A stretch of DNA of 64,000 bases from assembly GCA_964608265.1 (NCBI GenBank), contig CAZSNP010000010.1, forward strand, positions 13,959 through 77,958. Reading direction: 5' to 3'. How positions within the stretch are numbered: the first letter of the stretch is position 1; each line of letters starts with the position of its first letter. The notes under the pieces are model-generated. The model was not told the DNA's origin. It made no database searches and saw nothing but the letters and a program-made list of their open reading frames with translations. A program made the position numbers and the translations under genes. Below, piece by piece: positions 41,846-55,140 of the stretch. This DNA comes from an uncultured Anaerolineales bacterium. Lineage in GTDB: Bacteria > Chloroflexota > Anaerolineae > Anaerolineales > UBA6663.

Positions 41846-42946
41846 TCAGCGGATCGCGACCTCGGTATCCTTGTGGAACAGGTGCATGTTGTCGAGGTTC
41901 ATCGCCATCGGCACCTTGTCACCCACACGCGCCCGGCTGCGCGGATCAACCCGGGCCACATAGTTCTTGTCGCCCGACTTGAGGTAGAGGAAGACCTCGT
42001 TGCCCATCAACTCGGTCACTTCGACGTCGGCCTCCACCGGTGCGGAGTGCACGCCGGGCGGGGCGAAGTTCGGGTCGTGAATATCTTCGGGGCGGACGCC
42101 AAAGACCACCTGCTTGCCCGCATGCGCCAGGTACGCGCCGGCCTTACTCTCGGGCACCCGCACCGCAAACGCGCCGGCATCCACGACCACGGTGTTGTCG
42201 GCCTTCACCAGTTTGGCGTCGAAGAAGTTCATGGACGGCGAGCCGATAAAGCCGGCCACAAAGACGTTGTTGGGCCGGTCGTATAAATTCTGCGGCGAGT
42301 CGAGTTGCTGCAGGATGCCATCCTTCATCACCGCGATGCGGCTGGCCATCGTCATGGCTTCAACCTGGTCGTGCGTGACGTAGATGAAGGTGGTCTTGAG
42401 GCGCTGGTGCAGCTTGGAGATTTCGGCGCGGGTTTGCACGCGCAGCTTGGCGTCGAGGTTGGACAGCGGCTCATCGAACAGAAACACCGAAGGTTCGCGA
42501 ACGATGGCGCGCCCCACCGCCACGCGCTGGCGCTGGCCGCCGGAGAGTTGTTTGGGCTTGCGCTGGAGCAGGTGGCTGATGCTGAGGATCTCGGCTGCTT
42601 CCTTCACCCGCCGGTCGATCTCCGCTTTGGGCGTCTTGCGAAGCTTGAGGCCGAACGCCATGTTGTCGTACACGCTCATATGCGGATACAGCGCGTAGCT
42701 CTGGAAGACCATGGCGATGTCGCGATCCTTCGGCGCGACATTGGTGACGTCGCGGTTGCCGATGAGGACGCGCCCGCCGGTGATTTCTTCCAGCCCGGCC
42801 AGGCACCGCAGCGCCGTGGACTTGCCACACCCGGAAGGCCCCACGAGGACAAGAAACTCTTTGTCTTCAATGGCGATGTTCAAATCCTTCAGAACGTGGT
42901 TGTCATTGAACCGCTTATCAACGTGGTCGTAGGTTACGCTTGCCAT
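41846..42946 (-). CDS. Sugar ABC importer ATP-binding protein (UgpC/MalK/MsiK family), monocistronic
   Basis: AAAGGAGAAA RBS before the ATG at 42946. MASVTYDHVDKRF...VLVGPSGCGKSTALRCLAGLEEITGGRVLIG...IAMVFQSYALYPHMSVYDNMAFGL...LSGGQRQRVAVGRAIV...FLFDEPLSNLDAKLR. No permease or binding-protein gene is adjacent. Confidence 0.9.
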   Translation of the reverse strand: MASVTYDHVDKRFNDNHVLKDLNIAIEDKEFLVLVGPSGCGKSTALRCLAGLEEITGGRVLIGNRDVTNVAPKDRDIAMVFQSYALYPHMSVYDNMAFGLKLRKTPKAEIDRRVKEAAEILSISHLLQRKPKQLSGGQRQRVAVGRAIVREPSVFLFDEPLSNLDAKLRVQTRAEISKLHQRLKTTFIYVTHDQVEAMTMASRIAVMKDGILQQLDSPQNLYDRPNNVFVAGFIGSPSMNFFDAKLVKADNTVVVDAGAFAVRVPESKAGAYLAHAGKQVVFGVRPEDIHDPNFAPPGVHSAPVEADVEVTELMGNEVFLYLKSGDKNYVARVDPRSRARVGDKVPMAMNLDNMHLFHKDTEVAIR

Positions 42947-42983
42947 GTGAGGTTTCTCCTTTGGGTTTTCATATGGTGACGGC

Positions 42984-42989
42984 ATTATA
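42984..42989 (-). promoter_or_regulatory. Consensus -10 hexamer TATAAT (minus strand) for the ABC ATPase gene
   Basis: attata at 42984-42989 on the plus strand, 37 nt upstream of the ATG at 42946. Confidence 0.45.
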
Positions 42990-43042
42990 ACTGAGCGTGC
43001 GCCCGGCGCATAGATGAATTTGGCGCTGCCCGGCGTGGCGGG

Positions 43043-45613
43043 CTACCGGGGCCGGGCCAGCGCCGCCGCCTCCTCGCGCGCGTGGACGTTGAGTTTGGTG
43101 AGGATGGCCGTGACGTGATGGTCAACGGTCTTGGGGGAGAGGTGCAGGCGCGCGGCAATCTGCGCGTTGGTGAGGCCGTCGGCGAGCAGCGCGAGGATTT
43201 GCGATTGGCGCGCGGTCAGGCCGAAGGGATTCTCGCGGGTGGCGGCGCGCGGCCCGCGCGGGATGACGGCCCCGGCGGCCTGCATCTTCGCCCGCAACGC
43301 CTCAGCCGCCGGTCGCGCGCCGAGCCGCTCGAAGATAGTGAGGGCAACGGCCTGCGCTTCAGCGTCGCCATCAGCGAGCGCACGGGCCTGTTCATACGGG
43401 CAGCCCATCCGCTCCCATTCCGCTGCCGCGCCGCGCCAGTCGCCGGCGATGTGCAGCGCGTAGGGCTTCGCCGCCCACTCGGGCAAGGTCACTGTCTCCC
43501 CAGCGCGCCACATCCAAAACGCCAGCTCGCCTACGTACCACGGTTGCTTATGGGTCAGCGCCAGGTCGAACACCGCGCGCGCTTCGGCGAGCGTGCGCTC
43601 GCGGTCGCCGGCCCACCACGCCGCCTCCGCCCGCGCCGCGCGGATCAGGCCTTCGCGCTGGCGGAAGCCCTGCTTGAGCAACAGGTCGAGCGACTCATCG
43701 AGCGCGGCCATCGCCTCCGGCTCGCCACGCCGCGTGCGCAGACGACCGAGCGCAGTGAGGGCAGGGCCGCGACCCGGCGACATCGGCCCACGGTCAACCG
43801 CCTCCCTCGCAACTCGCTCGGCCTCGGCCCACTCGCCGCGATGAAGTTTGTGAATGGCCAGCCAGCCCTCCGTGAACGCCCACACCGAATCCAGCTCGCG
43901 TTCCTGCACGTACGGCGCGCCGACTGCAAACAATTCATCCGCGCGCGCGAACTCGTGAAAGTCCACGTAAATCGAGGTGAGGTTGGCGTACAGGTTGCCG
44001 GCGCGCACGGCATGGTCGAGTTCGAGCGCCAGCGCCAGCGCCCGTTCGAGATAGTTCATACCGCGTGCGTGGTCGAGGTAGAGCCAGCACAGCCCGGCGA
44101 CCTCGAGCAGGCGCGGCATCGGCTCATCGTCCTCGACCCGGTACGCCAGCGCCAAGCCCTTCTCAGCCATGGCCGCGCCGCGCGCGTTATCGGCGTTCGC
44201 CAGGCTGAGCCACGCTTCCATGTTGTAGGCGTAGAGCAGTTCGGCGTTGGGGGCCAGCGGTTCGAGAATCTCGAGCGCCGTACGATTGGCCGATTCGGCC
44301 TCGGCCTTGTGGCCGGTGATCTGCATGAGCAGCGCGAAGTGAGTCAGGCTGCGGCCATACTGCAACGGCTCGCCCGCCTGCGGCCACAACTGCAACGCGC
44401 GGCGGCGCGCCTCAATCGCCTCCGGGCGGCGGTCGGTGGTGTCGCACTCGGTCGCGAAGTCATCCAGTAATTGCGCGTGCTCGCCGGGCGGCAACCCTTC
44501 CGCGTGCCGCAACGCGAGTTCGAAAAGTTTGGCTGCGGCGCGGTGGGCTTTGGCCTCAACCGAGCGCCGTGCGGCGGCCGGGGCGAATTGCAGAATCGCT
44601 TCGCCGTCACCGGCCCCCTCGGCGTGGTGGGCGAGGCGGGTCAGGTCGGTGCGCGTGGCTGGATGAGCACGTAAGGCGTCGAGCGTCATGCGGTGCAGGG
44701 CCAACCGTTGCGGCGGGGCGATGGTTTCGAGGATGATCTGTCGAGCGAGTTCGTGCCGAAAGGCCAGGGCTTCGCCGTGCGCGACCAGCATCCCCGCGTG
44801 CAGACAATCATCGGCGGCGGAGGCCTCCGCGCCGGTGACCGCCGCCAGCGTCCACGGCTCGATGCGCGGGCCGATGATGGCCGCGGCCCGCAGCACGGCC
44901 TGGGCCGAGAGCGAGAGCCGGGCCGCGCGCGCCAGCACCGCATCGCGCACGGTGGTGGGGATGCCGCTATCCCCGCCTGCAATCGCCTCGGTGACGAAGA
45001 AGGGGTTGCCGGCGGTCTGCTGGTGCAGCCGGGCGGCATCCACTTTCACATCCCCGATGAGCGTGCGCACGGCCTCCGGCGAGAGCGGTGACAGCGCGAT
45101 ACGGGTTACGGCGTTCGAGGTCGCCAGGTCGCCGAGCAACGCGCGCAGCGGGTGGCGCGGCCCGACTTCGTCGTCACGATAGGTCAGCACCACCAGCGCC
45201 GTCGTGCGTTCGATGCGGCGCGCGAGGTACTTCAGCAGGTCGAGCGTGGCCTCATCCGCCCAGTGGATGTCTTCGACGATGACGAGGGCTGGGCGCTGCT
45301 GCAATTCAGCGAGGAAGGCGGCGGAGAGCGCAGCCGGTTGGCCGCCAGCGTTGAGGCGGGCCGGCCACTCGCCGCCGAGTTGCCCGGCCATATCGTGCAG
45401 CGGCCCGAGCGGGCGGGGGGTGAAGAGCGCGTCGCACGCGCCCCACAGCACGCGCACATCCGCCCGCTGCTCACGCGCGAAGCGTTCGACGAGCGCCGTC
45501 TTGCCGATGCCGGCCTCGCCGCTGACGAGCGCCAGGCGGCCCGCGCCGTTCACGGCGTCGTGCAGCGCGGCCTCGAGTTCGCGCAGCGGCCCCTCGCGTT
45601 CGAGCAATTCCAT
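43043..45613 (-). CDS. LAL-type regulator (N-terminal AAA/STAND ATPase, TPR-like middle, C-terminal LuxR HTH), copy 1
   Basis: Walker [18 protein letters not shown], Walker B ALVIVEDIHWADEATLDLL, and C-terminal LTARQSQILALLADGLTNAQIAARLHLSPKTVDHHVTAILTKLNV. Confidence 0.9.
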   Translation of the reverse strand: MELLEREGPLRELEAALHDAVNGAGRLALVSGEAGIGKTALVERFAREQRADVRVLWGACDALFTPRPLGPLHDMAGQLGGEWPARLNAGGQPAALSAAFLAELQQRPALVIVEDIHWADEATLDLLKYLARRIERTTALVVLTYRDDEVGPRHPLRALLGDLATSNAVTRIALSPLSPEAVRTLIGDVKVDAARLHQQTAGNPFFVTEAIAGGDSGIPTTVRDAVLARAARLSLSAQAVLRAAAIIGPRIEPWTLAAVTGAEASAADDCLHAGMLVAHGEALAFRHELARQIILETIAPPQRLALHRMTLDALRAHPATRTDLTRLAHHAEGAGDGEAILQFAPAAARRSVEAKAHRAAAKLFELALRHAEGLPPGEHAQLLDDFATECDTTDRRPEAIEARRRALQLWPQAGEPLQYGRSLTHFALLMQITGHKAEAESANRTALEILEPLAPNAELLYAYNMEAWLSLANADNARGAAMAEKGLALAYRVEDDEPMPRLLEVAGLCWLYLDHARGMNYLERALALALELDHAVRAGNLYANLTSIYVDFHEFARADELFAVGAPYVQERELDSVWAFTEGWLAIHKLHRGEWAEAERVAREAVDRGPMSPGRGPALTALGRLRTRRGEPEAMAALDESLDLLLKQGFRQREGLIRAARAEAAWWAGDRERTLAEARAVFDLALTHKQPWYVGELAFWMWRAGETVTLPEWAAKPYALHIAGDWRGAAAEWERMGCPYEQARALADGDAEAQAVALTIFERLGARPAAEALRAKMQAAGAVIPRGPRAATRENPFGLTARQSQILALLADGLTNAQIAARLHLSPKTVDHHVTAILTKLNVHAREEAAALARPR
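45411..45606. repeat. 196-bp segment identical to 51306-51501 (5' ends of the two LAL genes)
   Basis: Base-by-base reading of both stretches found no mismatch. Flanking bases differ (c45410 vs g51305; a45607 vs g51502). Confidence 0.9.
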
Positions 45614-45622
45614 GGATGCCCG

Positions 45623-45628
45623 ATTTTA
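45623..45628 (-). promoter_or_regulatory. -10-like TAAAAT (minus strand) 9 nt upstream of the LAL-1 ATG
   Basis: The minus strand reads gcggTAAAATcgggcatccATG inside the 24-nt gap 45614-45637. Confidence 0.3.
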
Positions 45629-45637
45629 CCGCGACGT

Positions 45638-46477
45638 TCAGCCGGAGGTGACCTGAAAGTAGTTGCCGAGCGCGTCCTTACCGCTAGCGTATGTGAATCC
45701 CTGCCCGTCACCGCCGACGGTCACGCCCTGGGCGGTGGTGCTCCTGGCACCGCCGCCCTGCTGTTGATACAGCAGCCACAAGTTGCCGAGCATTGGCCCG
45801 CCTTCCCAGCCGAAGTTACCGCTGGCATCCACCCAGTAGCGGCCGGGTAGCACCATCGGCACGAGACGGCGCAGCCCCAACACATCCATCAGGTGCAGTT
45901 CGCGGCCGTTGATGATGACGCCGGTGTTGCCGCCCGAGGCCTCGCGCGCCAGCGGGCCGCCCAGCGGCAGCCCGGCCGGGATGAAGCCGCGCGTCGGGCC
46001 GCCTCGCCAGCCCCACGCCCCACAGACTTTGTCGTACCAGAAATCGCCATCGCCGATGCGCAAACCCAACCGTCGTTCGACTGCCGCGAGCGCCTCATCA
46101 CTCACGCGCACGCCGTTGACGACGACCGAGCGCGTGAAAGTCTGCGGCGTGACCCCTTGCTGGAGCGCCGCTTCGATGTCACGCCGCAACGCCTGCGTGC
46201 GCGCCTTCACATGGTTGGATTGAATGGGGCCAAAGCCGAAATTCGAGCCGCGCAGGGTCATTTGCGTTGCGTTGGCCTGCGCGCTGGCGAGCGTGATCTC
46301 GACGGCGACCGGATTGCCGAACGACGACGGCTGTGGCACATCACGGCACGTGAGCCGGTCGTTCGCCTCCGCCGAGATCGTCCAACCTGACCCAGCACAC
46401 GCCGATTGGCAAGCCGCCCGCGCCTCGGCAATAGAGCCTGGGAGCGTAAAGGTTTCGTGATATGAAGGCATGGTCAA
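45638..46477 (-). CDS. Hypothetical protein with an internal duplicated NG...YW.D..G..GW.GGP module
   Basis: The start abuts the upstream stop (46477/46478). Residues 118-164 (VVVNGVRVSDEALAAVERRLGLRIGDGDFWYDKVCGAWGWRGGPTRG) repeat at 187-231 (VIINGRELHLMDVLGLRRLVPMVLPGRYWVDASGNFGWEGGPMLG). I see no signal peptide and recognise no family. Confidence 0.6.
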   Translation of the reverse strand: MTMPSYHETFTLPGSIAEARAACQSACAGSGWTISAEANDRLTCRDVPQPSSFGNPVAVEITLASAQANATQMTLRGSNFGFGPIQSNHVKARTQALRRDIEAALQQGVTPQTFTRSVVVNGVRVSDEALAAVERRLGLRIGDGDFWYDKVCGAWGWRGGPTRGFIPAGLPLGGPLAREASGGNTGVIINGRELHLMDVLGLRRLVPMVLPGRYWVDASGNFGWEGGPMLGNLWLLYQQQGGGARSTTAQGVTVGGDGQGFTYASGKDALGNYFQVTSG

Positions 46478-47833
46478 TCACCTTTCCGCTGGCTTGCGGA
46501 GCTCCAGCGCGTTGATGCGCTCGCCGATACACCGGCCCTGCGCCAGACCCGCCTCAATCGCAGGCCGGAAGTGGATGCCGCCATATAGCCGCGAGATAGC
46601 GGCTTCTTCCGCCGCCGTGAAGAAGGAGTCAAAGGTTCGCGCCTTCAAGCCACGCTCAACGTGGGTCGTGTCGGTGAACGCATAGCCCTCGCCGAACAGC
46701 GCGGTCAGCACGACGGCCACCGCCCCCGATTGCACTGAATGTCCGGAGGGATATTCCGGGAACGGCGGCGTTAGCACCGGGTCGGTGGGGTCGGGGTGGT
46801 TCCATGTCGGATCAATCACCGCTTGGATATAGCTGATCGGCCGGACGAGGTTATAGGTGTACTTGGCCTGCCAACAACCGATGAAGGCATCGGCGGCTGC
46901 CAGGCCAACCTTTAGGTAAGTTTCTGCCGCCAACGCAAGGCTGGCCGACTCCGTGCGTAACACTTGTGTGGCGATGGCGATGGAATGGCCGGACGGTGTG
47001 GCGGTCTGCCCGGGATCATCGGCCCAGAACAGCGCGATCTCTCGTTGTTCCGGCGTTAGGTGGCGGACGGTATCGTACACCTCCCGGGCCTCGGCATAGA
47101 ACTGCGAGCCGGCGTCTTCGGAGTATTCAGTCGGCGGCGGTGGCGCGCACGTTGCTCCGGATTTGAGGACGAATGGCCGATTGTCACCCCAGGTGGGCTG
47201 GAGTGGGATGGGCTGGTAACCGGGCAATGTGGGCACCCATTTCCCCGGCCCATTTGGCGGCGCAAACGATTCGGGGAAGTTGCGGGCGTAGCCTTCATGG
47301 CCGCCATCGAACTTTGACCACTCGAAAATCGCTTCGGCCAGCGCCCGTCCATATTCAGTTGAACGCGCGAAGACCGCCTGGCTCACCTCAGCTTGATAGA
47401 GCTGGTCGAACTTCTGCTCCAGCGCATCTACCGCTGCGCGGTTCTCGGGCGTCATAGTTGGGTAGAGGCGGCGGAGAATTGCCGCTTGCGCGCTGTTCAC
47501 AACAGCCGCCCAGTGGAAAGCCTGGCCCGCCTGCGGTGGGGGAAGGGATGTCAGCGCATTCAACCGACCGGACAATGATTGGTGTTCCGGCATCCCACCT
47601 ACAACGGACTCGTACAGGGCGACCCCTGAATAGGCCAAAGCGCGTGCGGCCACCGGCGGCGTGAAGCCGGGCGTTTCGGCGATGAGTCTGAGTTGCAGAT
47701 CGAACCACTGGAGGGCGATCTCGGCAGGATATTCAGCCGCCGGCTTCAGCGGTGTGTTCGTCGGCTGACAGGCCGGCAACCAGACAAGCAGGACGATCTG
47801 GATGAACAAATGCAGGCGTCGTAGGCGAAGCAT
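46478..47833 (-). CDS. PAP2-superfamily, vanadium-dependent haloperoxidase-like lipoprotein
   Basis: GAAGGAAGAAGGA RBS before the ATG at 47833. MLRLRRLHLFIQIVLLVWLPACQP is lipoprotein-like. Three active-site motifs are present: KYTYNLVRP (K-x6-RP), PEYPSGHS (PSGH) and SRLYGGIHFRP (SR-x5-H). The size and helical N-terminal half fit bacterial haloperoxidase-like PAP2 proteins. Confidence 0.7.
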   Translation of the reverse strand: MLRLRRLHLFIQIVLLVWLPACQPTNTPLKPAAEYPAEIALQWFDLQLRLIAETPGFTPPVAARALAYSGVALYESVVGGMPEHQSLSGRLNALTSLPPPQAGQAFHWAAVVNSAQAAILRRLYPTMTPENRAAVDALEQKFDQLYQAEVSQAVFARSTEYGRALAEAIFEWSKFDGGHEGYARNFPESFAPPNGPGKWVPTLPGYQPIPLQPTWGDNRPFVLKSGATCAPPPPTEYSEDAGSQFYAEAREVYDTVRHLTPEQREIALFWADDPGQTATPSGHSIAIATQVLRTESASLALAAETYLKVGLAAADAFIGCWQAKYTYNLVRPISYIQAVIDPTWNHPDPTDPVLTPPFPEYPSGHSVQSGAVAVVLTALFGEGYAFTDTTHVERGLKARTFDSFFTAAEEAAISRLYGGIHFRPAIEAGLAQGRCIGERINALELRKPAER

Positions 47834-47855
47834 GTCCTTCTTCCTTCTCGCCGCG

Positions 47856-48131
47856 TCACGCATGAGAGTACGGATCGAGTACGCGCACTTCGGTGATGCG
47901 ATCCACCGGCCAGTCGTTGCGCCGCGCGGCCCGGCGGATGGCCTCCGGGGACGGCGCTTCGTAGATACCAAACAGCCGGCGTTTGTCCGCGGACACATAC
48001 GTGTGCAACCACACCACCTGCTCGCGGGCGTTGTTGCCGATCACTTCCCGCAACGTCGTTCCAGTGTCGAAGGTCAGCGTGAATTCCTCTGGAAACGTTT
48101 GCTCAACAACGTAACGTGGCATGGTTGACAT
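47856..48131 (-). CDS. DUF4242-family small protein
   Basis: MPRYVVEQTFPEE...VVWLHTYVSADKRRLFGIYEAPSPEAIRRAARRNDWPVDRITEVRVLDP matches the DUF4242 pattern (W.HSYV..D...C.Y.AP..EAIR.HA...G.P...I..V). The start is one of ATG 48131, 48122 or 48170. Confidence 0.7.
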   Translation of the reverse strand: MSTMPRYVVEQTFPEEFTLTFDTGTTLREVIGNNAREQVVWLHTYVSADKRRLFGIYEAPSPEAIRRAARRNDWPVDRITEVRVLDPYSHA

Positions 48132-48181
48132 GACGTGCGACGCACGTTTGGAGTGCGTCGCACGGTGCACGGAGGGGAGGG

Positions 48182-48817
48182 TTACGGCCGCACCTTCAAC
48201 TCGACGCGCAGGGCCACGCCGAAAGTGGGCTGGTCGGCGTTGTTCAAACCGAGGAAGGTCTGAATCTGTTCGCCGCGCGCGGCGCGGTGCGGGCCGGTGC
48301 CGCCGACGATGGCGCGCCGGAACGGCACGTTCATGTCCACCAGTTCGTAGCCGTTGGTGACGATGGACTCCTCGCCATAGGACGAGCCGAAGTCATAGTA
48401 TTGGGTGGTGATCACCCACGGGCCGGTCTGCGTGGCCGCGCCCTCGCCAACATGGAAGCCCCAGCACGTCCACGTACCGAGCACTTTGTCGGGGAATTCG
48501 GGGCTGCCGTCGGGCAACACGCCGTTGCACGCGCCCTCGTGGCAGGTGAGGGTGCCCTCGGGGTAAAGGTAGCCCTGGGTGATGAACTCGCCGCCAAAAG
48601 CAGGCATCCCGGCGAAGTCACCCTCCGCGTACACCGGCGTTTCGTCGGGCGTGAACCGGGTGCCGTTCTCGGCGACTTCGAAGACAATGGTGCGGGTGCG
48701 GGAATGGGCGGCGACCTCCAGCATCGGGTCAAGCCCGCCCGAAGCAAAGGCCGCCCCGGCGGTGACGGCCAGCAACAGGACGACAACGCCGGCGATGATC
48801 CAGTTTTTGCGTGACAT
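48182..48817 (-). CDS. Secreted dirigent-like / allene-oxide-cyclase-barrel-like protein
   Basis: GAGGAGG RBS before the ATG at 48817. Signal/anchor WIIAGVVVLLLAVTAGAAFASG. The C-terminal RRAIVGGTGPHRAARGEQIQTF...FGVALRVELKV resembles the plant dirigent signature (VVGGTG.F...RG...(Y)FRLRV.IK). Confidence 0.55.
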   Translation of the reverse strand: MSRKNWIIAGVVVLLLAVTAGAAFASGGLDPMLEVAAHSRTRTIVFEVAENGTRFTPDETPVYAEGDFAGMPAFGGEFITQGYLYPEGTLTCHEGACNGVLPDGSPEFPDKVLGTWTCWGFHVGEGAATQTGPWVITTQYYDFGSSYGEESIVTNGYELVDMNVPFRRAIVGGTGPHRAARGEQIQTFLGLNNADQPTFGVALRVELKVRP

Positions 48818-48849
48818 GTGAGCCTCCTCAGTGAAAGGTTGATGATTTC

Positions 48850-48855
48850 ACTATA
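48850..48855 (-). promoter_or_regulatory. -10-like TATAGT (minus strand) ahead of the dirigent-like operon
   Basis: The minus strand reads cgcTATAGTgaaatcatcaacctttcactGAGGAGGctcacATG in the 102-bp gap after the LAL-2 stop. Confidence 0.3.
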
Positions 48856-48919
48856 GCGGAGGCCGGGGGCGGTGTCGTCGGGGGAAACCCTATGTTGGCA
48901 GTCAAGTAACCCGATATTT

Positions 48920-51511
48920 TCACAACGGGTCGCGATGTTGGGGGTCGGCCAGCCCGGCCTGCACCGCCCAGGTGGCGATCTGCACACGCGACTCCACACC
49001 GAGCTTGTTGAGGATGCGCGTGACGTGCGCCTCGACCGTTTTGGTCGTCAGCACCAACGCGTGGGCGATCTCACGATTGGAGCGGCCCTGCGCGATGAGG
49101 GCGGCGACCTCGCGTTCGCGTTCGGTCAGCCCGCGGTACTTGCCCTTCGCCAGTTGCCGCGCCGTCAACGCGCTCAGCTTTTGCTGCACCATCGCCGTCG
49201 CCGGCTTCGCGCCCAGACGTTCGAGGAGGTCGAGCGCGGCCGATTGCGCCGCCTCGTCACCGTCGGCCAGGGCCAGCGCCTGTTCGTAGGGGCAGCCGAT
49301 GTGCGCCCACTCCTCGGCGGCCTCGCGCCATTGCCCCGTAATCTGTAACGCGTGAGGCTTCGCTGCCTGAAGGGGAGGCGCAACCAGCGCACCGGCGCGC
49401 CACATCCACAGGCTCAACTCGCCAGTCTCCCATTTCTCCTCCAGCTTGATCAGCCGCTCGAAACAGGGGCGGACTTCGGTCACAATGCGCGACAGGTCAC
49501 CGGCCAGCCACGCGGCTTCGGCGCGGGCCGAGGCGACCGGGTCGAGGTGATACAGGTCGCCTAAAGATTGCGACAGTTGCAGGGCTTCATCAAGGATAGC
49601 TTCCACACCGGGTTCTCCCCGGCGCAGCAAGGCGTGACCCAGTACGGTGAGCGCCTCGCGGCGCAAGGGAACGGAGGCGCCAGGAATCACCAACAGTGCT
49701 CGAGCCTCGTCGACTGCTTCCTGCCAACGGCCCTGTCGAAAGCGAAGCCTGGCGCGATGTGCGCACGCCATGAACGTGTACCCATCCAGATCGCGCTCCG
49801 AGGCATATGCCATCCCTTCGGCCAGCCAGCGCTCGGCGCGCTCAAACTCGTGCACGACAAGGGCGTTGCTAGTGAGGTTGATGTAGGCCCGCGCCGTGTG
49901 ATCAGACAGTTTGTGCGCCAGCGCAAGCTGAAGGCTGCGTTCGAGTTTGAACCAGCCGGCGTGGTCGCCGCGATTGACCTCAAGACAGCCGAGGCTGTTG
50001 AGTGCGTGTGCCAGCGCTTCAACCGCATTGAGGCGCTCGGCCAGCGTGATCGCCCGGACCAGCCATTCAGTCGCCGCCTCGTATTCATCTGCGAGCGTGT
50101 GGCGCATCCCTTTGCGGGCATAGGCCAGGGCCAGCTCCGGGCTGGGCGGCAGCGTTTCGAGTAGCTGAATCGCTTCCTCGCCCCGTTCAATCCCCTCGGC
50201 TCGCCGCCCCACGCTGTAAGCCAGGCTGGAGAGCAGCGCCGCACACGCGCCTTCGCGGCTGCGCTGGCCCACGGCGCGCCAGAGTTCTTGCGCCTCGCGG
50301 CAGGTGCGGTAGGCCTCGTCCGCGCTACCGGTCAGCGCGCACACTTGGGCATAGCTCTCCAACAGCTCGGCGCGCAGTTTGGGATTGGAGTCTGGAACAT
50401 ACTTGAGCACCGAACCGTAGTGCGAGATGGCCTCGCGGTGCGCGCCCGAGGCGGCGGCCTGCCGGGCGGCCTGCGGTGCATACGCCATCACGGCTTCGAT
50501 ATTACCCGCAGCCTCGGCGTGATGGGCCAACCGTGCAAGATCATTGCGTGTGAGCGGCGATGCTTCGAGCGCCGCCAATACGAATTGATGGAGCGCGAGC
50601 CTGTGCTGAGGCGAAGTGGCATCGAGGATCGCCTGCCGGGCCAGTTCATGCCGAAAGGCGAAAGCCCCACCTTCAATCAGCAGCAGGCCAGCGGCGAGGC
50701 ATTCTTCGGCCCTCTCCGCTTCAGCGCCAGTCACTTCGGCCAACAGCCACGGCTCCACGCGCGCGCCGATGACGGCGGCCGCCTCCAGCACCGCCCGCGC
50801 CGAGAGCGACAAGCGGGCCGCACGCGCCAGCACCGCCTCGCGTACCGTGGCGGGTAAGCCGCGCACCTCGCTGGCGAGTACCTCTGTAATGAAGAAGGCA
50901 TTGCCATTTGTCTGGCGATGCACGGCCAATGGGTCAAGCGCCCGAGAGCCGATCAGAGCGCGTACCGCTGAAATGGAAAGCGGCGGCACGGCGATGTGTC
51001 GTGTCGCCGCCGAGGTCACCAGGTCACCCAGCACCGAGCGCAACGGGTGCTGCGGTCCCAGCTCGTCATCGCGATAAGTGACGATGAGCAGTGCACGGGT
51101 GCGCGCGATGCGCCGACCCAGATACTTCAGCAGATCAAGCGAGGCCTCGTCGGCCCAGTGCGCGTCCTCGATGACCACCAGAGCAGGGGTGTGCTGAAGC
51201 TCCGCGAGCACGGTGGCGAACAGGGCTATACGATCGGCGTCGGCGCTGAGCTGCGTCAGTACCTCACCCTGCAACTGGGCGGCGATGTCGCGTAGCGGGC
51301 CGAAGGGGCGGGGGGTGAAGAGCGCGTCGCACGCGCCCCACAGCACGCGCACATCCGCCCGCTGCTCACGCGCGAAGCGTTCGACGAGCGCCGTCTTGCC
51401 GATGCCGGCCTCGCCGCTGACGAGCGCCAGGCGGCCCGCGCCGTTCACGGCGTCGTGCAGCGCGGCCTCGAGTTCGCGCAGCGGCCCCTCGCGTTCGAGC
51501 AGTTCCACCAT
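48920..51511 (-). CDS. LAL-type regulator (AAA/STAND ATPase, TPR-like, LuxR HTH), copy 2
   Basis: The first ~67 aa are identical to copy 1 ([67 protein letters not shown]). C-terminal [45 protein letters not shown]. Confidence 0.9.
51306..51501. repeat. 196-bp segment identical to 45411-45606
   Basis: See the partner repeat at 45411-45606. Confidence 0.9.
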
Positions 51512-51517
51512 GGCCGA

Positions 51518-51523
51518 ATTCTA
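51518..51523 (-). promoter_or_regulatory. -10-like TAGAAT (minus strand) exactly 6 nt upstream of the LAL-2 ATG (leaderless candidate)
   Basis: The minus strand reads ggggTAGAATtcggccATG. Confidence 0.35.
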
Positions 51524-51531
51524 CCCCGCTG

Positions 51532-51537
51532 TATACT
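51532..51537 (+). promoter_or_regulatory. -10-like TATACT exactly 6 nt upstream of the SARP-regulator ATG (leaderless candidate)
   Basis: The plus strand reads gctgTATACTcgccgtATG. The whole divergent gap is only 32 bp. Confidence 0.35.
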
Positions 51538-51543
51538 CGCCGT

Positions 51544-54500
51544 ATGGCCGAATCCGCCCATCCGCACCGCATCCATCTGCTCGGCGGCCTGCGGGCCGAG
51601 GCGCCGGGCGGGGCGGTCGCGGTTCCCGGCGGCAAGCCGCAGGCGCTGCTGGCCTACCTCGCCCTCCATCCCCACACACCCCACACGCGCGAACAGTTGA
51701 TGGAGATTTTCTGGCCCGACGTGCCCGCCGAGCAGGCGGGGCGCTACCTCTCGAACGCCCTCTATCGGTTGCGCGCGTCGCTGGGCGGTGAGTGGCTTCA
51801 GGTTGAGGAGGGGCGCCTCGGCGTGCAACGCGACTCGGTGTGGGTGGATGTGTGGGAGTTCGAGCGGCTCGCCAAAAGCGCGCGGGCCGCGGATTGGGAG
51901 CAGGCGCTGGCGCTGTACGCCGGTGACCTGCTGCCCGAAATCTACGCCGATTGGATTCTGCTGCCGCGCCTGTCGTTGCGCGAGCGTTTCCTGGCCGTGC
52001 TCGGGCAGGCCGCGGATCAATGCGCGACCGATGGCCGCTGGCCCGAGGCCGCCAGCCACCTCCGCCGCCTCGTGGCCGCAGACCCGCTCAACGAAGACGC
52101 CCAACGCCACCTCATGCGCGCGCTGGCCCGTCTGGGGCGGCTGGCCGAGGCCTTGAGAACGTTCGACGAGCTGCAGGCGATGCTGCACAGCGAACTGGAA
52201 GTTGCGCCCGCGGAGGAGACCCGCGCGCTGGCCGAACAACTCCGCAGCGAGATGGTTGCGGCGCGCGCGGCCCCACGCCCGGCGCGGCCTGCCTTCGTCG
52301 GGCGGGCGGATGAACGGGCGCGTCTCATCGCGCGACTGGAGCAGGCGCAGGCCGGCCACGGCGGCTTCGCCGTGTTGCTCGGCGAGGCCGGCATGGGCAA
52401 GACGCGGCTGCTCGAAGAGTTGCAGCACGCCGCCGGCTGGCGCGGCTGGCAGGTGTGCTGGGGGCGCGGCGAGGAGTTTGGCGTGCCCGCGCCCTTCGCC
52501 CCGCTCTCCGCCGCGCTGCAAGCCGCGCTGCCCGCGATCCGCCTGCACCAGGTCGCGCGGATGGTGGAGCCGATGTGGCTGGGGTGGCTTTCGGGCCTCG
52601 TCCCCGACCTCGCCGCGCACTCGCCAGGCCGCGCCGCTTCCCCTCCGCCGGACGCGCAACAGTTGACGCGCGCGCTGGCCCGAGTCCTCGCAGCGCTGAG
52701 TCGCATCCATCCACACTTGTTTCTGCTCGATGACGTTCACTGGGCCGAGGCGGAGATGTGGCCCGTGCTGGCGGGCCTGGGCGATAAGGTGCGGCAGATT
52801 CCGGTGCTCGTGGTGTTGGGTGGCCGCCCCGACGAATGGCAGCGGCAACCCGAGGCCTGGCGGTCGGTGGGCGATTGGGATCGCGCGGGCGAGCCCGTCA
52901 TCACGCTCGGCGGCCTGCCGTCGGACGAATTGAGTCAATTACTGGCGCTCGGCGCGGAGCCCCTCGGCCCCGAACGGTTGCGGCAATTACACACGGCCAC
53001 CGCCGGCAATCCGTTGCTCGCGCTGGAGTTGGCGCAGGCCGGCGACCTCGAAGCGGCACTGCGCCACAAGCCCGGCCTCGCCGACCTGGCGTTGCGGCGT
53101 TTGGACTCGCTCTCGGGCAATGCGCGGCTGGCGTTGCAGGCCGCGAGCCTGCTGGGCTATCGCGTGAGATACCCGCTGTGGGAGTCGCTGCTCGACCGGC
53201 TGGCCGCGCCGGCGAGCGGCCTCCCCGAGTGGGCGGGCGAACTCGAACGAGCGCATCTGCTGCAACTGGCCGGCGGCGAGTACGTCTTCGCCCACGACAC
53301 CCTGCGCGCGGCGGTGTACGGCGCGCTCGCTCCGGCGCAAGTGAAAGCGTGGCACGCGCACGCGCTCGAGCTTCTGGAATCGCAGCCCGGCGGTGATGCC
53401 ACTGACCGGTTGTATCACGCGCGCCGGGCGGAGGATGCGCCAGCCATCGCGCGGCACGCCCGCGCCGCCGGTGAGCGCGCGCTGGCCGGGTTTGCCTACC
53501 GCACCGCGACCGGGTTTTTCGCTGAGGCGCTCGCGGCCACCCCGCTCGGTGCGCCTCGCGAACGATTCGAGTTGTTGCGCGGTCAGGCCGAAGCCCTGCG
53601 CATCCTCGGCGACCGCGAGCATTTGCCCGAAGCCTTGCACACTCTGGCAGCGCTCTCCGCCGAGTTGGGCGAGGCCGCACTGCAGGCCGAGGCCACCTTG
53701 CAGCGCGCGCGCTATGACTGGCAGACCGGCGACTTCGAGCACGCGCAGGCCGCCGCCGAGCGCGGCCTGGCGCTGGCGTCCGGCGACAAGCTGCGCGCCG
53801 ACCTGGGCCTCGAGTTAGGCCGCATCGCCCGCGACCGGGGCGATTACGCCGGCGCGCAGGGCTGGCTCGGCCAGTCGCTCGCCCACTACCAAGCCGCGCG
53901 CGATGAAGCCGGGCAGGCGACGGCGCAGGACTTGCTCGGCATCGTCGCGCAACGGCAAGGCCGCCTGCCCGAGGCCGTCGCCCATCACACCGCCGCGCAA
54001 CAGACTTTTCAACGCCTGGCCGACATCCGCGCCGAGACACACACCCTGGTCAACCTCGGGGTGGCGCTGTGGATGCAGGGGGATTTCGCAGCGGCGCGCG
54101 CGGCCTTCGAGCGCGTGCTGCCCATCAGCCGCGACCTGGGCGATGTGAACAGCGAGACCGCCGCACTGACCAACCTGGCCGCGCTGGCCGGGACCGCCGG
54201 CGACTTCGAGCGCGCGCTCGAATTGCAGAGCGCGGCCCTCTCCCTCGCGCGCGCAGCGGGCAATCGCCCGCGCCTCGCCAACCTGCTCGGCAACCTGGGC
54301 GATACCCTTCACCTTCTTGGCCGAGTCAGCGAAGCACGAGCAGCATTCGAGGAGGCGCTACAACTCGATCGCGAATTGGGCCGGCGGCGCGGCGAGGGCT
54401 ATGTGTTGCACGCGCTGGGCCAATTGCTGCTCGAAGCGAGCGAACCGGTCGAAGCGCAAATCAGTTTCGAAGCCGCGCTTCACATCCGCGTCGAGTTGGC

Positions 54501-55140
54501 GGAGCGCGTTAACGCCCTCATCACGCGCGCCTCGCTTGCCGCCGCGCACCTCGCGCAGGGCCGCCGGCCTGAGGCCGAAGCCGCATTGCAATCCGCGCTG
54601 GGTGAGCTCGATGACGTTTACGCCGGCCCGGAGATCCTGCGCGACGTACACTTCATCGCGTACCGGGCCTTCGCGGAATGGGGCCGGCGCGAGACCGCGC
54701 TCGAACACCTGCGCGCCGCCGAGGCCGCCATGCAGGCGCTGGCCGAGAAGCTCGCCCCCGAGGACAGCCGGCGATTTTTGGAGCGCGTGCCGGACAACCG
54801 CCGCATAGTCGAGGCTGTCGCACACAACTCCGAATTTGCAACTGTCCGCCTTGCCCGCGCCGCTGCCCCGCTGGGCCGCCCGCTCACCGAGGCGGATTTC
54901 GTCTCCGTGCGCTGGACGCTCTCCACGGTGAGCGACGCCGCCATCCCCGATGCGACCGAACGCCGCCGCCACATCCTCCGCCGGCTGCTGGCCGAGGCCG
55001 GGGCTCAAGGCGCGGCCCCCACCGACGACGACCTCGCCCGCGCGCTCGGCGTGGCGCGCCGCACCATCGAGCGCGACATGGCCGCCCTGCAAGCCGCCGG
55101 TCACCCCCTCCCCACCCGCCGCCGCAAAGCGAGCGCGTAA
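51544..55140 (+). CDS. SARP/AfsR-like regulator: OmpR-type winged helix + BTAD, NB-ARC-like ATPase, TPR repeats, plus an extra C-terminal HTH_11/DeoR-like motif
   Basis: N-terminus IHLLGGLRAEAPGG...KPQALLAYLALHP...REQLMEIFWPD, then BTAD (DPLNEDAQRHLMRALARLGRLAEALRTFDEL). Walker A VLLGEAGMGKTRLLEEL, Walker B LFLLDDVHWAE. Many TPR-like units follow. The last ~60 aa read RRHILRRLLAEA...DDDLARALGVARRTIERDMAALQAAGHPL. Confidence 0.85.
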   Translation: MAESAHPHRIHLLGGLRAEAPGGAVAVPGGKPQALLAYLALHPHTPHTREQLMEIFWPDVPAEQAGRYLSNALYRLRASLGGEWLQVEEGRLGVQRDSVWVDVWEFERLAKSARAADWEQALALYAGDLLPEIYADWILLPRLSLRERFLAVLGQAADQCATDGRWPEAASHLRRLVAADPLNEDAQRHLMRALARLGRLAEALRTFDELQAMLHSELEVAPAEETRALAEQLRSEMVAARAAPRPARPAFVGRADERARLIARLEQAQAGHGGFAVLLGEAGMGKTRLLEELQHAAGWRGWQVCWGRGEEFGVPAPFAPLSAALQAALPAIRLHQVARMVEPMWLGWLSGLVPDLAAHSPGRAASPPPDAQQLTRALARVLAALSRIHPHLFLLDDVHWAEAEMWPVLAGLGDKVRQIPVLVVLGGRPDEWQRQPEAWRSVGDWDRAGEPVITLGGLPSDELSQLLALGAEPLGPERLRQLHTATAGNPLLALELAQAGDLEAALRHKPGLADLALRRLDSLSGNARLALQAASLLGYRVRYPLWESLLDRLAAPASGLPEWAGELERAHLLQLAGGEYVFAHDTLRAAVYGALAPAQVKAWHAHALELLESQPGGDATDRLYHARRAEDAPAIARHARAAGERALAGFAYRTATGFFAEALAATPLGAPRERFELLRGQAEALRILGDREHLPEALHTLAALSAELGEAALQAEATLQRARYDWQTGDFEHAQAAAERGLALASGDKLRADLGLELGRIARDRGDYAGAQGWLGQSLAHYQAARDEAGQATAQDLLGIVAQRQGRLPEAVAHHTAAQQTFQRLADIRAETHTLVNLGVALWMQGDFAAARAAFERVLPISRDLGDVNSETAALTNLAALAGTAGDFERALELQSAALSLARAAGNRPRLANLLGNLGDTLHLLGRVSEARAAFEEALQLDRELGRRRGEGYVLHALGQLLLEASEPVEAQISFEAALHIRVELAERVNALITRASLAAAHLAQGRRPEAEAALQSALGELDDVYAGPEILRDVHFIAYRAFAEWGRRETALEHLRAAEAAMQALAEKLAPEDSRRFLERVPDNRRIVEAVAHNSEFATVRLARAAAPLGRPLTEADFVSVRWTLSTVSDAAIPDATERRRHILRRLLAEAGAQGAAPTDDDLARALGVARRTIERDMAALQAAGHPLPTRRRKASA

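Follow-up and report, generated by a model that had tools for sequence, protein, structure and literature searches.

The 64,000-nucleotide stretch of DNA from an uncultured Anaerolineales bacterium that we analysed (the window) carries on its minus strand a short operon that lies between two STAND/LuxR-type regulator genes, LAL2 and LAL1 (Table 1). The order on the minus strand is LAL2, a 102-bp gap, a gene for a bacterial dirigent-like (DIRL) protein, a gene for an SCO4226-like protein, a gene for a vanadium-haloperoxidase-type (VHPO) protein, a gene for a protein of 277 amino acids (aa), a 24-bp gap and LAL1. This six-gene arrangement is identical on four independent metagenome contigs, which excludes an assembly artefact. 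The original prediction for this locus had proposed that the DIRL and VHPO proteins are an oxidant-plus-template pair. In our best reading, the locus is one version of a widespread bacterial cassette composed of a STAND regulator, a DIRL barrel and an enzyme, in which the downstream enzyme is interchangeable.

Table 1. Features of the operon and its regulators; positions are those of the window
Feature	Position	Strand	Details
LAL2, STAND/LuxR-type regulator, 863 aa	48920..51511	-	AAA_16 (E = 1.9e-21), AAA_22, weak TPR_12, GerE (E = 1.2e-18)
Gap between LAL2 and DIRL	48818..48919	-	102 bp, sequence read directly; promoter-like site and ribosome-binding site
Promoter-like ACGACA-17-TATAGT	48878-48850	-	TATAGT at 48855-48850
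Ribosome-binding site GAGGAGG	48829-48823	-	5 nt ahead of the DIRL ATG
DIRL protein, 211 aa	48182..48817	-	Signal peptide, linker, predicted eight-stranded beta-barrel at residues 42-210
SCO4226-like (DUF4242) protein, 91 aa	47856..48131	-	PF14026 (E = 2.2e-16); alternative GTG start at 48170
VHPO-type PAP2 enzyme, 461 aa	46478..47863	-	Signal peptide, lipobox-like LPAC; second Met at 47833
277-aa protein, no known family	45638..46471	-	START/Bet v 1-like N-terminal ~105 aa (predicted); duplicated beta-rich C-terminal domain
Gap between the 277-aa gene and LAL1	45614-45637	-	24 bp, read directly
LAL1, STAND/LuxR-type regulator, 856 aa	43043..45613	-	AAA_16 (E = 6.7e-22), GerE (E = 4.1e-18)
Near-identical 5ʹ tracts of LAL1 and LAL2	45411..45613 and 51306-51508	-	~201 of 203 nt identical by direct comparison

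The DIRL protein begins with MSRKNWIIAGVVVLLLAVTAGAAFASGG, which we read as a signal peptide from features recognized by eye alone: a charged n-region, a 15-residue hydrophobic core and AFA-SG. Signal-like N-terminal segments are present in nearly all of 39 aligned relatives; two of the relatives start within or just before the mature domain. The match to the Pfam family Dirigent (PF03018) is under the gathering cut-off (E = 0.0039; 17.3 bits versus 29.1), and 34 of the 39 aligned family members match PF03018 at E < 0.1, the best at E = 1e-6. There was no match in NCBIfam, and a search of PDB with the single sequence gave no match at E ≤ 10. Because these searches were empty, fold prediction was needed. 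An AlphaFold2 model built with the family alignment (pLDDT 89.4) shows eight strands, preceded by a helical signal peptide and a linker of low confidence. All PDB matches of this model in Foldseek belong to the allene oxide cyclase (AOC)/dirigent barrel superfamily (E from 3e-6 to 1e-3), and include PodA, moss and Arabidopsis AOCs, PloI4, pterocarpan-synthase dirigent proteins (PTS), AtDIR6, DRR206, Tsn15, PyrI4 and AbmU. PodA, AOC, PloI4, PTS and AtDIR6 match at E from 3e-6 to 6e-4, and for AOC, PTS, AtDIR6, DRR206 and PodA the Foldseek probability was 1.0. A GGTGxF/YxxARG stretch, RAIVGGTGPHRAARGEQ, lies between strands beta6 and beta7, and its residues G172, G173 and G175 are invariant. E50, Y85, W116, C118, Q139, E158, R168 and Q186 are likewise invariant. 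A profile of the family finds PsPTS1 (E = 0.03), GePTS1 and PodA among PDB sequences via the common motif aivGGTGxYxxarG. The model supports the dirigent/AOC-type barrel that had been proposed for the 211-aa protein. The family is a distinct branch without formal Pfam membership. It is compact: a word search places 426 clusters in it, and an exhaustive search of 1.84 billion representatives with a profile gives 659 clusters at E ≤ 1e-3. Its members come from Chloroflexota, Actinomycetota, Acidobacteriota, Cyanobacteria and other phyla. The relatives closest to the window barrel, like those closest to the window VHPO, are from Chloroflexota metagenome-assembled genomes.

The VHPO protein aligns with the vanadium iodoperoxidase of Zobellia galactanivorans (PDB 4CIT) at E = 2.6e-77, with residues 31-439 of the query matched to residues 28-442 of the chain, across both helical bundles. 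Curvularia chloroperoxidase and algal bromoperoxidases give far weaker matches than 4CIT, and a 217-aa acid phosphatase reaches only E = 0.27. The vanadate-site residues W331, K334, R341, S373-G374-H375, R425 and H431 (461-aa numbering) all match 4CIT and are invariant in nine DIRL-linked homologues. The original prediction described this PAP2 protein as haloperoxidase-like with three site motifs kept; KYTYNLVRP, PSGH and SRLYGGIH are all found in it, and the description holds, given the homology to 4CIT, the complete set of vanadate-site residues and the export signal. In Pfam, PAP2 scores above its cut-off (50.1 bits versus 27.2), and VCPO_N (22.4 versus 29.3) and VCPO_2nd (19.1 versus 27) score below theirs; precomputed matches to PF22778 are recorded for the same protein. 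The family is large, with more than 7,500 clusters at E ≤ 1e-20, and NCBI labels members of it as vanadium-dependent haloperoxidases. The signal peptide of the window VHPO ends in L-P-A-C, in which the Pro at position -2 is atypical for a lipobox ([LVI][ASTVI][GAS]C). A homologue at locus L011 has a canonical LAGC lipobox at the same place (loci numbered L0xx or L1xx are those of relatives found in our surveys, and are not parts of the window), and other homologues have Sec or Tat signals. The window VHPO is probably exported as a lipoprotein. Among VHPOs encoded beside DIRL genes, the vanadate site is kept in all, and the signals are of the Sec, lipoprotein or Tat type.

Homologues of the barrel were surveyed by scanning one genome per species. 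This gave 80 loci, from Chloroflexota, Actinomycetota, Acidobacteriota, Cyanobacteria, Deinococcota, Pseudomonadota, Myxococcota and Bacillota, with ~1.2 Mb of flanking DNA, and the neighbours of the DIRL genes were clustered and then tabulated by gene offset. The constant partner is a STAND regulator, encoded upstream of DIRL at 45 of the 80 loci. STAND genes occupy the position immediately before DIRL in 23 of 77 cases (18 on the same strand), offset -2 in 15 of 69 and offset -3 in 7 of 63; at all other offsets their frequency is roughly 0-10%. The architectures of these regulators vary, and include AAA_16-TPR-GerE, GerE-NB-ARC-TPR, HTH_3-NB-ARC-TPR and BTAD/Trans_reg_C-AAA_16, as well as Pkinase-nSTAND1-WD40 giants of 1,800-2,000 aa. 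Downstream of DIRL lie enzymes of four kinds: a methyltransferase close to Mycobacterium tuberculosis Rv2258c (E = 5e-123; 23/80 loci), a BBE/FAD flavoenzyme (17/80; E = 5e-118 to EncM, the enterocin flavin-N5-oxide oxygenase), an esterase-like alpha/beta-hydrolase (13/80) and a VHPO (11/80). At least one of the four is encoded within 4 kb of DIRL at 51 of the 80 loci. The kinds can also be combined: DIRL, an EncM-like enzyme and a VHPO occur together at three loci (L059, L060 and L069), and the order methyltransferase-barrel-VHPO occurs at four, in Actinomycetota and Thermomicrobiales (L025, L033, L042 and L044).

The DIRL-VHPO pair is recurrent, not obligate. The 11 loci with both genes come from Chloroflexota and Actinomycetota, and their VHPOs are of two subtypes, of ~450 aa and of ~365-420 aa. 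Every one of the 11 VHPO genes is on the same strand as DIRL and 100-1,800 nt downstream of it, with none elsewhere in the flanks, and a neighbour-joining tree of the barrels puts the loci in at least six separate positions. Chance adjacency is thereby excluded. Parts of the window operon are also found apart from the rest, beside LAL1-like regulators. At locus L173 (L173:4233-7493) a LAL1-like gene comes directly after the closest homologue of the window VHPO (75% identity), and there is no DIRL gene. At locus L091 (L091:1327-6852) the gene for a LAL1-like regulator (52% identity) precedes, in this order, those for an SCO4226-like protein, a lipoprotein of 276 aa, a methyltransferase and a relative of the 277-aa protein. 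Two of the four window cistrons thus accompany a LAL regulator without DIRL or VHPO.

The surveys yielded several further observations on these genes. One EncM-like flavoenzyme lies at L022:10545-11966, and others lie at 16 other DIRL loci; no polyketide synthase was noted in the inspected flanks of such loci, which were not systematically annotated. The alpha/beta-hydrolase partners were considered as cofactor-free haloperoxidases or perhydrolases; their best matches are esterases and haloalkane dehalogenases, which does not support that assignment. A single 314-kb contig carries two identical copies of a DIRL gene (L006:8001-10290 and L007:4031-6320), each with a giant STAND protein before it and a pair of IS605-type OrfB/TnpB and Y1 transposase genes after it. 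In Leptolyngbya-type cyanobacteria (L067, L071, L075, L080, L081 and L085), DIRL is followed by a conserved ~100-aa protein without a Pfam match; at five of these six loci it is preceded by a conserved 500-690-aa protein, and the one of these that was scanned (L075) is an RTX calcium-binding protein. This cyanobacterial context is unlike the enzyme cassettes of the other groups. At L173, a divergent phosphonate-binding-type protein, a sensor kinase and a response regulator are encoded on the upstream side of the VHPO gene.

Direct reading of the window bears out the gene order of the original prediction, its 102-bp gap with TATAGT and GAGGAGG, and its 24-bp gap. The genes it listed are all present, with starts that differ by a few codons: in gene calls on identical contigs, the SCO4226-like protein begins with the ATG at 48131 and the VHPO begins at 47863, the earlier value of 47833 being the second Met. 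The ACGACA-17-TATAGT sequence is well placed before DIRL and is the sole sigma-70-like match in the 9 kb that were scanned (42800-51800); since 0.8 such matches are expected by chance, the single match is insignificant on its own. The stop codon of the SCO4226-like gene and the ATG of the VHPO gene overlap by 8 nt, and no terminator-like sites were found between the operon genes, LAL1 included. LAL1 is probably co-transcribed with the upstream cistrons.

The two remaining cistrons of the operon lack export signals. The SCO4226-like protein scores 60.2 bits against PF14026 (cut-off 28.5) and only 18.6 bits against the nickel-binding equivalog NF033706 (cut-off 125); hence, nickel binding cannot be assumed. 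A sequence search of PDB with this protein found nothing. The last cistron had been described as a 279-aa protein of no known family with an internal duplication. It is 277 aa long; the rest of that description stands, as the protein has no match in Pfam or NCBIfam, and an internal repeat (34% identity over 47 aa, E = 3e-5). Its PDB sequence matches are at chance level only, and its 237 homologues, mostly unnamed, are from Acidobacteriota, Gemmatimonadota and others. An AlphaFold2 model (pLDDT 84.6) predicts an N-terminal helix-grip domain, for which Foldseek gives weak matches, within the N-terminal third, to START/PR-10 proteins and polyketide aromatases/cyclases; the duplicated C-terminal domain has no structural match in Foldseek. 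Members of this family sometimes contain an inserted SHOCT domain (PF09851).

LAL1 and LAL2 are 51% identical as proteins. AAA_16 and GerE score above threshold in both, confirming that two STAND/LuxR regulators flank the operon, and TPR_12 is present between them below threshold. A direct comparison revealed the near-identical tract at the 5ʹ ends of the two genes, which a repeat finder had missed; outside this tract, DNA identity is ~65-70%. This pattern suggests a recent gene-conversion tract. The two tracts form a 5.9-kb direct repeat, through which the cassette could be lost or exchanged. A further STAND regulator, the third, is 1198 aa long (51544-55140, plus strand); this protein, with Trans_reg_C/BTAD, AAA_16, many TPRs and a C-terminal HTH_11, is divergent from LAL2, with the two start codons 32 bp apart (51511-51544), so that three STAND regulators are encoded within 12 kb. 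A role in anti-phage defence was considered and rejected, as PADLOC matched just the helix-turn-helix segments of the regulators. Directly downstream of LAL1, the region from ~10000 to 42000 resembles a surface-polysaccharide locus; it contains a run of glycosyltransferase genes, a gene for a DUF2142 membrane protein and ABC-transporter genes, and has a G+C content of 55-62% versus 65-70% in the flanks.

What might such a cassette do? We tentatively favour, at somewhat less than an even chance, the conversion of a small aromatic compound by a cassette under sensor control, in which the barrel and the VHPO of this organism work extracellularly. By analogy with MalT-type STAND regulators, a LAL regulator would bind a small-molecule ligand, switch on via its ATPase and activate a promoter in the 102-bp gap. 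Both the barrel and the VHPO have signal peptides, and would be exported. Outside the membrane, the VHPO would use hydrogen peroxide (H2O2) and halide to produce an oxidised halogen species. The barrel may bind an electron-rich aromatic (phenolic, quinone-like or phenazine-like) or a reactive intermediate, and so decide the product; alternatively, it may destroy the compound, as PodA does with pyocyanin. For the two proteins without export signals, the SCO4226-like protein and the START-like 277-aa protein, the probable role is to bind the compound, or a metal, in the cytoplasm. Since neither the operon nor the related cassettes inspected contain core biosynthetic genes, the cassette is more likely to modify or neutralise an existing compound than to build one.

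Several points weigh against joint action of the barrel and the VHPO. A VHPO gene is absent from 69 of the 80 DIRL loci. In the reverse direction, we surveyed 80 metagenome loci that hold the nearest relatives of the window VHPO, together with four further close relatives (62-75% identity). None of the 80 has a DIRL gene nearby, nor were LAL, EncM-like or methyltransferase genes found near them, and the four close relatives also lack DIRL, in unrelated and heterogeneous contexts; hence, the VHPO does not need the barrel. The synteny that had been put forward as a check on the pairing is therefore present on the barrel side, in 11 other species, and lacking on the VHPO side. Among the partners, export signals are confined to the barrel and the VHPO; the hydrolases, the methyltransferases and the EncM-like enzymes have none. 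As three of the four partner kinds lack an export signal and the barrel is secreted, direct cooperation of enzyme and barrel cannot be the general rule, and a choice among four interchangeable enzymes, three of them cytoplasmic, does not fit a dedicated oxidant-plus-template machine. VHPOs carry out two-electron oxidation of halide, and do not make the one-electron phenoxy radicals used by classical dirigent proteins. The operon encodes no H2O2-generating enzyme. The Lys/Arg/Ser-Gly-His/Arg/His active site is common to PAP2 acid phosphatases and VHPOs, such that sequence cannot decide between haloperoxidase and phosphatase. In addition, the neighbour counts come from simple open-reading-frame calling in high-GC DNA, and the tree of the barrels is without support values. 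The idea of an oxidant-plus-template pair is thus borne out in part: the barrel fold, the VHPO homology, the export signals and the recurrent adjacency speak for it, and the non-obligate association, the interchangeable and mostly cytoplasmic partners and the two-electron chemistry speak against it.

An alternative explanation is that the barrel and the VHPO are co-regulated members of a stress- or xenobiotic-responsive STAND regulon and act independently. The barrel would then be a self-sufficient enzyme or binder, perhaps PodA-like, and the VHPO would consume peroxide, oxidise iodide or make an antimicrobial hypohalite. We consider this somewhat unlikely, although it accords with the many DIRL loci without VHPO, the absence of DIRL from the VHPO loci, the interchangeable and mostly cytoplasmic partners, and the position of PodA as the top structural match of the barrel. 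However, the VHPO gene is always directly downstream of DIRL on the same strand, an arrangement that recurs in two phyla and at no fewer than six places on the tree and that suggests a link beyond common regulation, and the export signals give the two proteins a common destination compartment. A different possibility is that a LAL2-DIRL module and a VHPO-277-aa-LAL1 module were fused by recombination, with no functional link between barrel and VHPO in this genome. The near-identical first ~203 nt of LAL1 and LAL2, which indicate recent exchange, are consistent with such a fusion, as are the VHPO followed by a LAL1-like gene at L173 and the LAL1-like gene before the SCO4226-like and 277-aa-like genes at L091. 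Nonetheless, fusion seems quite unlikely to us, given the DIRL-VHPO adjacency in 11 other species with different regulators, the short intergenic distances, the 8-nt overlap and the lack of an internal terminator.

The operon could also be a small gene cluster for the biosynthesis of a product that is halogenated or coupled by oxidation, in which the barrel is a cyclase or dirigent protein and the VHPO a halogenase, as for napyradiomycin and merochlorin. Streptomyces VHPOs are known to carry out directed halogenation and cyclisation, and the barrel resembles the PloI4, PyrI4 and Tsn15 cyclases. Yet this explanation is very unlikely: the operon and its flanks encode no polyketide synthase, nonribosomal peptide synthetase, terpene synthase or prenyltransferase, the neighbours are glycosyltransferases, an ABC ATPase and regulators, related cassettes are equally without core biosynthetic genes, and both proteins are exported. 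Finally, the PAP2 protein could be an extracytoplasmic acid phosphatase or a phosphate-scavenging lipoprotein rather than a haloperoxidase. The shared active site, the Pfam scores (PAP2 above threshold, VCPO_N below) and the phosphonate-binding-type protein and sensor kinase beside the L173 homologue are all compatible with a phosphatase. The end-to-end alignment with the two-bundle Zobellia iodoperoxidase, the negligible similarity to the 217-aa acid phosphatase and the naming of relatives by NCBI as vanadium-dependent haloperoxidases make this most improbable.

How does the cassette compare with known systems? Plant dirigent proteins work beside a separate extracellular oxidase. The plant dirigent proteins and pterocarpan synthases (AtDIR6, DRR206, PsPTS1 and GePTS1) share with the window DIRL the fold, secretion and the GGTGxFRxARG motif, although the sequence similarity is marginal (profile E = 0.03). 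Their partners are radical-making laccases or peroxidases, whereas the window barrel is paired with a putative two-electron oxidiser of halide, and barrels of other species with cytoplasmic enzymes. The best structural match of the barrel is PodA, the pyocyanin demethylase of Mycobacterium fortuitum (PDB 5K21; E = 3e-6), a bacterial barrel that transforms an exogenous aromatic toxin unaided and that has a GGTGEY motif; it is shorter, with ~120-140 residues in the crystal, and its TM-score relative to the DIRL query is 0.37-0.47. The Zobellia iodoperoxidase (4CIT/4USZ) shares with the window VHPO end-to-end homology and identical vanadate-site residues. No dirigent-like partner has been reported for it in the literature searched. 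LAL1 and LAL2 resemble LAL/MalT-type STAND regulators in their N-terminal P-loop NTPase, helical/TPR sensor and C-terminal LuxR helix-turn-helix, and in adjoining their presumed targets, but differ in being two paralogues around one short operon with a near-identical 203-nt 5ʹ tract.

Bacterial dirigent-like proteins were reportedly catalogued by Dabravolski in 2020, and we know of no bacterial member with an assigned partner or substrate. In the plant literature, dirigent proteins are regarded as a land-plant innovation. They have been stated to be absent from algae and cyanobacteria (PMC7450108). Bacterial DIRL proteins have been catalogued in 49 genomes, mostly of Streptomyces, with a few reported from Chloroflexi (Bardin et al. 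2022, PMC9344732). Like the window protein, those proteins have a single domain of ~200 aa, an N-terminal secretion signal, a predicted eight-stranded barrel, a GGTG-Y/F-xx-RG stretch and a cysteine in strand beta3; the window family differs in scoring under the PF03018 gathering threshold. Of the neighbours of DIRL genes, that study mentions just "a hydrolase or an oxidoreductase", with no mention of haloperoxidase, LuxR, FAD or methyltransferase (PMC9344732). Although the individual parts come from known superfamilies, the STAND-DIRL-enzyme cassette and the pairing with a VHPO have not been described in the literature searched. Our literature search found no paper that links dirigent proteins with vanadium haloperoxidases, in agreement with the original prediction, and nothing relevant on horizontal transfer of dirigent genes.

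The context described here gives the bacterial DIRL family a reproducible setting, in which a sensor regulator precedes the barrel gene and a tailoring enzyme of one of four kinds follows it. This makes an orphan family testable, and names the enzyme pairs: barrel with VHPO, and barrel with EncM-like flavoenzyme. More speculatively, the cassette may be an inducible surface defence module that parallels the apoplastic defence of plants, with an NLR-like STAND sensor, a secreted barrel and an oxidising enzyme (a VHPO or an EncM/BBE-type enzyme) in many filamentous or soil bacteria, in which the barrel directs how a phenolic or quinone-like compound is halogenated, coupled or destroyed by the oxidant. 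We regard this as quite unlikely; if true, oxidative chemistry guided by dirigent proteins would be an ancestral bacterial trait and no invention of land plants. A barrel that steers haloperoxidase chemistry would open a way to use VHPOs, which are otherwise unselective, for selective halogenation. If the barrel instead destroys the metabolites of competitors, like PodA, the cassette would represent a widespread inducible defence against redox-active toxins.

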